Below are positions 49,455 through 52,244 of a stretch of 64,000 nucleotides of DNA, piece by piece (the first letter of the stretch is position 1; the number at the start of each line of letters is the position of its first letter). The stretch is from positions 557,421 to 621,420 of the forward strand of contig OY970062.1 in the NCBI GenBank assembly GCA_963705245.1, in the 5' to 3' direction. The notes below the pieces were generated by a model that had not been told where the DNA came from, did not search any database, and saw only the letters and a program-made list of their open reading frames with translations. The DNA is from an uncultured Solirubrobacterales bacterium (lineage in GTDB: Bacteria > Actinomycetota > Thermoleophilia > Solirubrobacterales > Solirubrobacteraceae). The position numbers and the translations under genes were made by a program.

Positions 49455-49499
49455 CGCTCCGACGGGGTGAAGCGCGGCCACAGCCCTACCATTGAAGGC

Positions 49500-50648
49500 A
49501 TGGCGCCGCGCACGAACTTCCAGCTCGCCCGCGTATTCGGGATCAGGATCGGCGTGGGCATCAGCTGGTTCGTCGTGCTGTTTCTGTTCGTGATCGTGTT
49601 CACGCCTTACTTTCACGAAGTGCTCGGGGGCTCGCACACGACCGCGTACCTGGTTGCAGTCGCGGTCGTGCTGTCGTTCTTCGTGTCGGTGATCCTGCAC
49701 GAGCTCGGGCACGCCCTCGTCGCGCGACGAAACGGCCTGTCGGTGGCTGGGATCGACCTGTGGGCGTTCGGCGGGCTGACGCGCATGCGCGAGCTGCCAC
49801 GCACGCCCGGATCGCAGCTTCAGGTGGCGATCGCCGGGCCGGCGGTGACGTTCGCGGTAATCGTCTTCGCCACCGTGGCCGCCCATCTGGCGGTCCCGAG
49901 CGGTCATTTCACCGAAGTGGCGACCGGTGGGAGCAGTGTGCAAGCGACGCCGGTGTTCGTATGGCTCAGCTGGCTGGCGACAGTCAACCTGTTCGTGCTC
50001 CTGTTCAACCTGATCCCCGCCTTTCCACTCGACGGCGGCCAGATCGCCCAGGCGCTGATCTGGTGGCGCACCGGCGACCGTAATCGCGCGACCCGCTGGA
50101 CGGGTCGTGCCGGCCAGGGGTTCGCGCTCGCGCTGGGGGCTCTCGGACTGGCCGGGCTGGCGTACGGCGACTCGTTCGGGGTGTTCACGATGGTGCTCGC
50201 GTTCATCCTCTACCAGGCGGCGAGCGGCGCGGTGGCACAAGGGACGTTCGGGCAGAGCATCCAGGGCGTGACGGTCGCCGACATCATGGATCGCGAGCCC
50301 GTGACGATCCCCGCGGGGCTCAGCTTGCTCGACGCTCAAGAGCAGTTCTTCCTGCGCTATCGCTGGCCGTGGTTCGCGGTGGTCGACCCGGCGCGCCATT
50401 TCCTGGGAGTAGTGCGCGAGCAGCGCGTGGACGCAGAGATCGAGGCCGGACGACCGGCGCTGCCGGTGGTGGACGTGCTCGAGGAGGACCTGCCGGTGCG
50501 GATCACCGAGGATCAGCCGGTGGAATCGTTGCTGCGCAGCGAGGGATTGGGGCGCCTGGGCGCGATGGTCGCCGTCGACGATCAAGGTGTGCTGCAGGGG
50601 GTTGTGACCGTCGGACAGCTGCGCAAGGCGCTGCGCCCGGCCACGTAG
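49500..50648 (+). CDS. Site-2 protease (M50) with CBS domains
   Basis: HELGH, AGP, FNLIPAFPLDGG and a C-terminal CBS pair; TACCAT 7 nt upstream of the ATG. Confidence 0.92.
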   Translation: MAPRTNFQLARVFGIRIGVGISWFVVLFLFVIVFTPYFHEVLGGSHTTAYLVAVAVVLSFFVSVILHELGHALVARRNGLSVAGIDLWAFGGLTRMRELPRTPGSQLQVAIAGPAVTFAVIVFATVAAHLAVPSGHFTEVATGGSSVQATPVFVWLSWLATVNLFVLLFNLIPAFPLDGGQIAQALIWWRTGDRNRATRWTGRAGQGFALALGALGLAGLAYGDSFGVFTMVLAFILYQAASGAVAQGTFGQSIQGVTVADIMDREPVTIPAGLSLLDAQEQFFLRYRWPWFAVVDPARHFLGVVREQRVDAEIEAGRPALPVVDVLEEDLPVRITEDQPVESLLRSEGLGRLGAMVAVDDQGVLQGVVTVGQLRKALRPAT

Positions 50649-50715
50649 GCAAACCGCGAACACGGGCGTGTGAGAGTAAGCCGATCGAAGCGGCCGGACG
50701 ATCCCTGGCCTGGGG

Positions 50716-50782
50716 CTTTCAAAGCTAAAGGCTTTTGGTTTAAAAGCGTTTGGAGCTTCTAAAACGCACTTGCAAAGCCGAT
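50716..50782. repeat. AT-rich direct repeat, copy downstream of the fic gene
   Basis: 67 bp; 56 of 68 aligned positions match 51960-52027. Confidence 0.88.
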
Positions 50783-50792
50783 GGGATCCGAG

Positions 50793-51950
50793 TTAGACCT
50801 CGTCGTGACCTCGAAGCGCTGCCAGAAGCTCGGCCGCGAGGAACAGCTTTCCCCACTTGCGTCCAGAGACCTCAACGAGAACGTCATCTCTGATGAGGTC
50901 GGAAATCGCAGCCCGCGCCGTGGGGTCGCTCACGCCGAGTCGCTCAGCGGCCTCCTTCGCGGTGATGTAAGGGTTCTCAAACAGGCGATCAAGCAACCGG
51001 ACCGCAGTTGGCCTCGCTTTCGAAGCCACGAGCACAGCTCTGCAGCGCTCGCGGAGTCCAAGCAGCCGCTGCGCGTCCTCACCTGCCTCGACGGCTTGGT
51101 TGCGCACCCCCTCCAGGAAGTAGCGCACCCAGGAGTCCCAGTCGCCGTGGGTGCTCACGCGCAACAAGAGGTCGTAGTAGTCGCTGCGAGTGCGCTCGAA
51201 ATAGGCGGAGAGATAGAGCAGCGGCTGTGGCAGCAGGCCCCGCTCGCACAGAAACATCGATACGAGCAGGCGACCAACTCGACCGTTGCCGTCTCGAAAA
51301 GGATGAATCGCCTCGAACTGATAGTGCACAAGCGCGATCTGAACCAGCGGTGGCAGCGTCTGATCGTGGAGGAACCGCTCGAGGTCGTGGAGCCCCCGCT
51401 GCATCTCCGGCAGTGGCGGGGGCACGTACGTCGCATCTGCGATCGTCGCTCCGGGAGGGGCAATGAAGTTCTGGCTCCTGCGAAACCGCCCGGGCGTCTG
51501 GTCGGCACCGCGGACTCCCCGCATCAGGTGCTCATGCAGCTCACGGATCAGCCGCAGACTGAGAGGGAGCTCGGAGATGCGGCGCAGACCAAACTCATGT
51601 GCCCCCACGTAGTTCTGAACCTCGCGGACATCCGTCGTGGCGCCGAAGAGCTGCGTCTGCCCGGCCTCCGCCGCGTAGACGTCGGCAATCGTGCTCTGCG
51701 TTCCCTCGATACGAGAACTGAGCACTGCCTCGCGCCGCAGATATGGAGAGACGAGAAGATGTGGATTCGGTAGCAGGCGACCGACACCGCTGAGCATGCC
51801 GAGCGCGTTCGAGGCTTGGTCAAGCAGGCGCACGGCAGCGGGGGAGATCTCGAACGTTGGCTGCAACGGCGCCGGCACGAACGCGACGGTCCCTCCCGCA
51901 GTCGGGACCAGTTGTCCGGGCGCATGCTCTGTGAATTGATCCCGCTTCAT
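50793..51950 (-). CDS. Fic-domain protein (AMPylase motif) with inhibitory helix and C-terminal winged helix
   Basis: HPFRDGNGRVGR, SSRIEG and PYITAKEAAERLGVSDPTARAAISDL. Confidence 0.93.
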   Translation of the reverse strand: MKRDQFTEHAPGQLVPTAGGTVAFVPAPLQPTFEISPAAVRLLDQASNALGMLSGVGRLLPNPHLLVSPYLRREAVLSSRIEGTQSTIADVYAAEAGQTQLFGATTDVREVQNYVGAHEFGLRRISELPLSLRLIRELHEHLMRGVRGADQTPGRFRRSQNFIAPPGATIADATYVPPPLPEMQRGLHDLERFLHDQTLPPLVQIALVHYQFEAIHPFRDGNGRVGRLLVSMFLCERGLLPQPLLYLSAYFERTRSDYYDLLLRVSTHGDWDSWVRYFLEGVRNQAVEAGEDAQRLLGLRERCRAVLVASKARPTAVRLLDRLFENPYITAKEAAERLGVSDPTARAAISDLIRDDVLVEVSGRKWGKLFLAAELLAALRGHDEV

Positions 51951-51959
51951 GGACCCAGT

Positions 51960-52027
51960 CTTTCAAAGTCAAGGGACGTTTTGTTTTAAAGCACTTGCAG
52001 CTTCTAAAGCGCACTTGCAAACCCGAT
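51960..52027. repeat. AT-rich direct repeat, copy upstream of the fic gene (promoter region)
   Basis: 68 bp; contains GCACTTGCA twice, 20 bp apart. Confidence 0.88.
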
Positions 52028-52244
52028 CTCCCAGGAGAGGCGCGGCAGCGGATATTTGAGGTCGGTGATGCCTGCCGAGTCGAGCCCGTCGAGCCCCAGG
52101 GCCACGTGGACGAACCCACGAACGCCCGGAGCTTGAGACTTCCCTGACGGGAGCGAGCCGCCTCGGGAGATTCGTCCTTATAGAGTCCCACCGGCAATCG
52201 ATCGCAACTATGCATCCGACGACGACACGACAGCACAGGGAGCC

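Follow-up and report, generated by a model that had tools for sequence, protein, structure and literature searches.

A four-box AT-rich array upstream of a SoFic/CccR-type fic gene and its copy behind the gene

The fic locus and its AT-rich direct repeat

The fic gene (positions 50793–51950, minus strand) was analyzed within a window of 64,000 nt, which denotes here the whole stretch of DNA under study, from a complete genome (G000) assembled as a single contig of 2,875,956 bp. Its left neighbor, convergent with it, encodes an M50 site-2 protease with CBS domains (49467–50648, plus strand; Pfam Peptidase_M50 and CBS), and sdhA follows on the right. The third-position GC content of fic is 0.74, compared to 0.86–0.89 in these two neighbors. 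The 385-residue product is identified by its Pfam, PADLOC and PDB matches as a class II Fic-wHTH protein of the SoFic/CccR type. It contains the Pfam domains Fic_N (5.7e-25), Fic (4.1e-21) and, at the C-terminus, HTH_24 (7e-7; winged helix-turn-helix residues 317–358). The PADLOC SoFic model matches over its full length (3.1e-116, residues 22–380). The PDB matches are the SoFic structures 3EQX and 9TCH (∼1e-33), whose chains align as far as residue 373, and, more distantly, CccR (7XUX, 7e-18). The active-site motif HxFx(D/E)GNGRxxR is present as HPFRDGNGRVGR and the inhibitory helix (S/T)xxxE(G/N) as SSRIEG. Thus, the active-site motif, the inhibitory helix and the wHTH that had been recognized in a sequence-only reading of the window are all confirmed.

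The gene is bracketed by two copies of a direct repeat. The downstream copy (repD, 50716–50782, minus strand) begins 10 nt past the fic stop codon and falls within the interval that separates the stop codons of the convergent fic and M50 genes. The upstream copy (repU, 51960–52027, minus strand) ends 9 nt ahead of the fic start codon. The two copies are identical in 56 of 68 alignment columns, with a single 1-nt gap, by both MAFFT and local alignment. A repeat search returned a core pair (50734–50782 and 51979–52027) with 86% identity, which extends to the full 68 columns once the gap is allowed. Local alignment of the sequences on either side of fic scores 73, while shuffled flanks reached 29 at most. 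The copies have GC contents of 40% and 43% (∼41% overall), compared to 66% for the window. The pairing, the distances to the gene and the strong AT-richness in a high-GC context agree with the earlier description, and the pair was also recovered by BLAST. A search of the complete genome with BLAST and with a 22-nt core pattern located exactly two copies, both at fic, which rules out a genome-wide repeat or MITE. The 12 differences among 68 positions make an assembly artefact, which had been considered as a possible source of the duplication, unlikely.

The palindromes listed in the sequence-only reading were all found, and they resolve into four ordered boxes per copy. In the direction of fic, these are box 1 (G/C)TTTGCAAG, box 2 CTTTAGAAG, box 3 CTTTCAAAC and box 4 (G/C)TTTGAAAG. 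All four are 9-bp near-palindromes and variants of CTTTSAAAG; a GCACTTGCA motif noted previously is a portion of box 1. On the plus strand, boxes 4 to 1 of repU occupy 51960–51968, 51983–51991, 52001–52009 and 52014–52022, respectively, and the boxes of repD occupy 50716–50724, 50738–50746, 50756–50764 and 50769–50777.

The array in orthologous loci and putative self-repression

To place the repeat in an evolutionary context, close orthologues of fic (68–92% amino acid identity) were traced to their own contigs and to five genomes of the same genus. The four boxes precede the start codon in identical order and spacing in all 15 non-redundant orthologue loci, and the neighboring genes differ in every one of them. 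The array is followed in these loci by ACT-N6-ATG/GTG, again at a fixed spacing. A profile built from ten orthologue arrays, with the studied genome left out, matched only repU (E=1.3e-17) and repD (E=2.7e-12) in that genome. Over 222 Fic loci (1.0 Mb), the same profile detected a single array at each orthologue locus, in every case ahead of fic and never with a second copy. The perfect 9-mer occurs six times in the genome (∼5 expected), and two of the six are inside the repeats. Since the profile matches nothing but repU and repD and the perfect 9-mer is at chance level, the array is an element of fic and not part of a host regulon, and no other gene is constantly linked to it. In a more distant clade of the same genus (∼60% identity), CTTTC/GAAAG half-sites are present in a different arrangement, and the predicted recognition helix, PTARAAI, is almost unchanged between the two clades. 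The collections of genomes and metagenome contigs yielded only homologues of at most 59% identity, none with the array.

The second array is not a conserved feature of the family. The sequence-only reading had called for a comparison of the flanks of fic homologues; the upstream array was found in the 15 loci, and a second copy was absent from all 14 non-redundant loci whose downstream sequence was long enough. The contig of the nearest relative (L060, with an orthologue of 92% identity) ends 30 nt past the fic stop and is outside these 14.

Two related proteins offer a functional precedent. CccR, a class II Fic protein with a C-terminal HTH, represses its own promoter via inverted repeats at the −35 and −10 regions, as demonstrated by lacZ fusions, EMSA, footprinting and ITC (PMC9755527). 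The SoFic dimer binds specifically to the AT-rich stretch of 100 bp that immediately precedes its start codon (bioRxiv 10.64898/2026.07.09.737422), and SoFic is described as a toxic single-gene anti-phage system (PMC12249575). Given the analogy with CccR and SoFic, and the constant linkage of the boxes to fic and to no other gene, self-repression of fic through the four-box array is likely. A Fic-wHTH dimer would bind the boxes via its C-terminal winged helix and, when bound at repU, would repress its own transcription, a mode of action demonstrated in CccR and indicated in SoFic. The upstream copy is likely to be the native promoter-operator region of fic. The earlier suggestion that the repeats are operators for the protein's own wHTH is therefore supported for the upstream copy, a conserved array travelling with the gene in a family whose members CccR and SoFic bind their own promoters. 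It is plausible for the second copy, which keeps all four boxes and could bind the protein, but which is not conserved among orthologues.

The comparison with CccR from Yersinia pseudotuberculosis (PDB 7XUX; PMC9755527) also reveals differences. Both are class II Fic proteins of ∼380 residues with an N-terminal inhibitory helix (SxxxEG) and a C-terminal HTH, although the sequence similarity is limited to the Fic core (E=7e-18) and T6SS secretion is not indicated for the Fic protein studied here. CccR is a dimer that represses its own promoter at AT-rich inverted repeats, a behavior that we would expect of the present protein. The CccR operator consists of one pair of 10-bp inverted repeats 26 bp apart, whereas the array described here has four 9-bp near-palindromes and is accompanied by a second array behind the gene. 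The Fic_N-Fic-wHTH architecture is shared with SoFic (Shewanella oneidensis, and Sofic anti-phage defence in E. coli; 3EQX, 9TCH; PMC12249575). The AT-rich 100 bp bound by the SoFic dimer upstream of its own start have a comparable AT-rich counterpart here, a presumptive binding site. For SoFic, however, the operator sequence is not defined and a downstream copy is not described. A further difference is that a search downstream of fic detected no convincing ORF for an AS1-like small antitoxin.

A conserved TGnAAGACT sequence overlaps box 4, exactly 6 nt ahead of the start codon. Judged from its conservation, it may represent the extended −10 element of a leaderless transcript, for which the fixed 6-nt distance would account. 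Half of the orthologues lack a Shine-Dalgarno-like sequence ahead of the start. A consensus scan of the locus found neither a sigma-70-type promoter nor a terminator.

As toxic single-gene anti-phage or toxin modules, Fic proteins of the SoFic type must have their expression held down tightly. The locus supplies a precise candidate operator, four boxes of the CTTTSAAAG type, for a whole clade of these proteins.

Insertion of the module and a proposed origin of the downstream copy

The M50 gene is followed directly by sdhA, and the repeat is absent, in 26 of 28 relatives of the same genus (M50 protein 61–87% identical); the other two had no sdhA match inside the flank examined. Eleven of the junctions were read base by base. 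Their spacers measure 57–220 nt and contain neither fic nor an AT-rich element, and a DNA search with the repeat gave no match in 40 relatives. An empty M50–sdhA junction carrying one copy of the repeat, which the sequence-only reading had proposed to look for, is thus not what the relatives display. A target-site or att duplication of resident sequence is ruled out by these empty sites. Homology with the relatives' spacers resumes near 52150, and its return is marked by a conserved TTATAGAGTCCC box (52178–52189, plus strand). The 1.35-kb unit consisting of repD, fic and repU is a horizontally inserted single-gene module. The metagenome contig L060 (1.4 kb; a Logan contig of SRR28003141), which encodes the Fic protein of 92% identity, abuts the same sdhA-side junction; thus, one or more close lineages have the insertion too.

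An outer repeat surrounds this unit. Its left copy (50591–50696, plus strand) comprises the last ∼58 nt of the M50 gene and 48 nt downstream. Its right copy (52042–52160, plus strand) is a degenerate pseudo-copy of the M50 3′ region, and this right-copy segment is common to L060. The copies align with a score of 42, which 0 of 1000 shuffles and 6 of 1000 random genome pieces attained, so that their status as a real duplication is suggestive only. The right copy is probably a duplication left by, or used for, the insertion of the module. The module would then sit within a degenerate duplication of the M50 3′ region, a likely insertion scar. The sequence-only reading had envisaged a single-gene cassette delimited by the AT-rich repeats; the horizontal insertion of a single gene stands, while the likely scar is the outer degenerate repeat and not the AT-rich arrays.

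The TTATAGAGTCCC box is located ∼55 nt upstream of sdhA and is kept in nearly all 28 relatives despite their variable spacers. It is probably the −10 region of the sdhA promoter.

The downstream copy extends from 5 nt before box 1 to the final base of box 4. The ACT-N6-ATG part found after box 4 in repU is missing from this copy, as are a −10 and a start region. No plausible small ORF was found at repD, and the sequence following it has no homology to the 5′ end of fic. A remnant of a truncated second fic copy was considered and rejected for lack of such homology, an argument that fails if the deletion was clean. As the array alone was duplicated, repD has no gene to control and most likely arose as a side product when a rearrangement installed or remodelled the fic module. 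With its boxes intact, it is probably still a binding site for the protein and may serve as an auxiliary or decoy operator. The view that it forms half of an att/res pair is not supported. On balance, we lean towards the interpretation that repU is the native self-repression operator and that repD is a lineage-specific rearrangement duplicate, probably still bound by the protein.

The age and constraint of the duplicate can be gauged from its divergence. The two arrays are ∼80% identical, and the fic genes of the studied genome and L060 are 78.8% identical at third codon positions; if repD is neutral, the duplication is about as old as the split between these two lineages. The differences between repU and repD fall at 3 of 36 box positions and 9 of 32 spacer positions (Fisher p=0.054), and the arrays are more alike than the copies of the outer repeat (∼65%). 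The spacer bias and the higher likeness give a weak hint that repD is under selection and is not a neutral relic.

A decayed locus in another species of the genus (G255; L260:1489–1631, on G255:C5) provides a comparison. It contains a four-box array and, within 0–5 nt of box 4, an inverted 76-nt scrap of fic (codons ∼99–127); an intact fic is absent from the locus. This shows that arrays can outlive their own gene. In both repD and the independent G255 scrap, array homology stops 0–5 nt from the 3′ edge of box 4. Recombination activity at the edge of the array could explain this shared stop.

Possible looping and mobility, and repeats at other Fic loci

An alternative to a rearrangement duplicate is that the two arrays are selected paired operators. 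In this case, Fic-wHTH oligomers bound at both, 1245 bp apart, would loop out the gene and achieve tighter or bistable self-repression; in a variant, the downstream array would block read-through from the convergent M50 gene. Two clusters with the same recognition motif do exist, all four boxes being kept in repD (orthologue profile, E=2.7e-12, against 1.3e-17 for repU). The duplicate covers exactly the binding array, its differences from repU are concentrated in the spacers, and SoFic and CccR are dimers with widely spaced DNA-binding domains. However, the box-versus-spacer statistic is marginal, and no second array accompanies the orthologues. Since none of the 14 loci carries one, looping is not part of a conserved mechanism of the family. 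The auxiliary operators of the lac (O1/O2/O3), gal, deo and lambda CI (OL-OR) systems are conserved and experimentally required. Two operator clusters of the same motif, ∼1.2 kb apart, bracket a gene here as in those systems, but the second cluster is lineage-specific and the Fic protein is known by analogy as a dimer only. Paired operators are a plausible reading of the downstream copy, and the lack of conservation makes looping less likely; taken together, looping and the read-through variant appear rather unlikely to us. Whatever its origin, the second array behind fic is a natural variant for asking about looping, titration and roadblocking.

A recombinase-mobilized cassette with att- or res-like sites had been the other proposal of the sequence-only reading. 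The arrays would then be the recombination sites of a mobile single-gene cassette, on which a recombinase encoded elsewhere, or host recombination, acts between repU and repD; an excised circle with fic and one array could reinsert. That fic was clearly inserted, and has a lower GC3, is in keeping with this proposal, as are the end of array homology at the same edge in two independent rearrangements and the frequency of direct repeats around SoFic-type genes (17 of 165 loci, see below). The distribution of the arrays argues against it. The empty sites of 26 relatives have no copy, the orthologues in 14 other contexts carry the upstream copy only, and a pattern scan of 400 genomes of the genus returned one scrap and no solo intact array. 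In addition, the repeats that flank Fic genes elsewhere are not arrays but duplicated 3′ ends of neighboring genes, specific to each locus. The absence of a nearby recombinase, as noted earlier, was confirmed; the tyrosine type is at least ∼53 kb away and the serine type at least ∼350 kb away.

Integron attC sites form imperfect hairpins with R″/L″ and L′/R′ boxes (RYYYAAC/GTTRRRY). The repeat has neither an attC-like fold, its folding being no better than that of shuffled sequences, nor an R″/R′ pair of core and inverse core. No integron integrase or further attC sites were found nearby, and the repeat itself occurs only twice in the genome. The arrangement of one cargo gene between two similar short sites, with no recombinase gene close by, does resemble recombinase-less modules such as the Acinetobacter pdif modules, cis-mobilisable elements and integron cassettes. 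In contrast to these, the sites described here are absent from empty loci and do not occur as pairs around orthologues, they neither fold like attC nor resemble dif, and in every orthologue the element precedes the ORF. We consider it improbable that the arrays are the recombination sites of such a cassette.

The least probable explanation, which we give very little weight, is that the array is a structured RNA (a leader or terminator) or is bound by a global regulator of the host with no relation to Fic: one can draw short hairpins, and the upstream copy would join the 5′ leader if transcription started further upstream, but no Rfam match (E≤1) or terminator-like site was obtained, the folding of both strands of both copies (z-scores −0.5 to +0.4) is indistinguishable from that of shuffles, and the array is found nowhere else in the genome and accompanies fic into unrelated genomes and contexts.

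Direct repeats are a recurrent feature around other SoFic-type genes. Flanking repeats with a score of at least 45 were detected in direct orientation at 17 of 165 Fic loci and in inverted orientation at 2 of 165, compared to 0 of 28 M50 control loci and ∼0.8% of random segments of the studied genome. In about half of these repeats, a neighboring gene's 3′ end is included. The layout of the outer repeat at fic is clearly seen at two other SoFic-type genes. A paralogue in the same genome (ficB; G000:C1, 419529–420734) has on either side a copy of the 3′ end of a Bcp/AhpC-TSA peroxiredoxin gene (122 nt, 76% identity), and the orthologue in contig L240 is bracketed by copies of the last 68 nt of its convergent neighbor (88% identity). 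A few Fic loci are multi-copy cassette arrays. These findings support a broader view of SoFic-type genes as mobile single-gene modules, but the repeats concerned are locus-specific target duplications and not operator arrays. Insertion could proceed by integrase-type att reconstitution followed by decay, by homology-facilitated illegitimate recombination, or by Campbell-type integration of a circle. These observations bear on how defence genes spread without a recombinase of their own: the direct repeats are ∼10 times commoner than in controls and are often duplicated 3′ ends of neighbors.

A more far-reaching proposal would treat SoFic-type genes and their arrays as undescribed, self-contained mobile modules. 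They would insert at the 3′ ends of resident genes with target duplications of 30–120 nt, use the array edges as preferred breakpoints, and be promoted by the Fic-wHTH protein or a recruited host enzyme; the two arrays at the present locus would be a frozen intermediate. We regard this proposal as speculative and doubtful.

Several additional features were observed at Fic loci. In the ficB region (G000:C1:419307–420954), the peroxiredoxin sequence on the right represents the genuine end of the gene, and that on the left is a stray fragment. Genes of the AhpC-TSA type are also found next to orthologues of the studied fic, in contigs L058 and L221. In the metagenome contig Ga0334722_10025776 (L154:196–3052), a distant Fic homologue is located among at least three copies of a ∼105-nt repeat, 1.0–1.4 kb apart, which form an integron-like cassette array. 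Multi-copy repeats surround fic in L088 and L094 as well. A third paralogue, ficC, is flanked by two copies of a ∼205-nt repeat (G000:C1:240907–241113 and 242819–243023). This repeat ends in (GA)n and ATG and is dispersed in at least nine full copies in the genome (443114, 454448, 769335, 777411, 786115, 786355 and 1906250 among them), which rules it out as a gene-specific flanking repeat. Other Fic-wHTH paralogues have their own, different AT-rich palindromes just upstream (G000:C1:241494–241550 and 297250–297330), the one ahead of ficC being CTTTGTAAGGAT-N8-ATCCTTACAAAG, suggesting a private operator for every paralogue. A (GA)n microsatellite of ∼50 nt is present at G000:C1:867296–867344.
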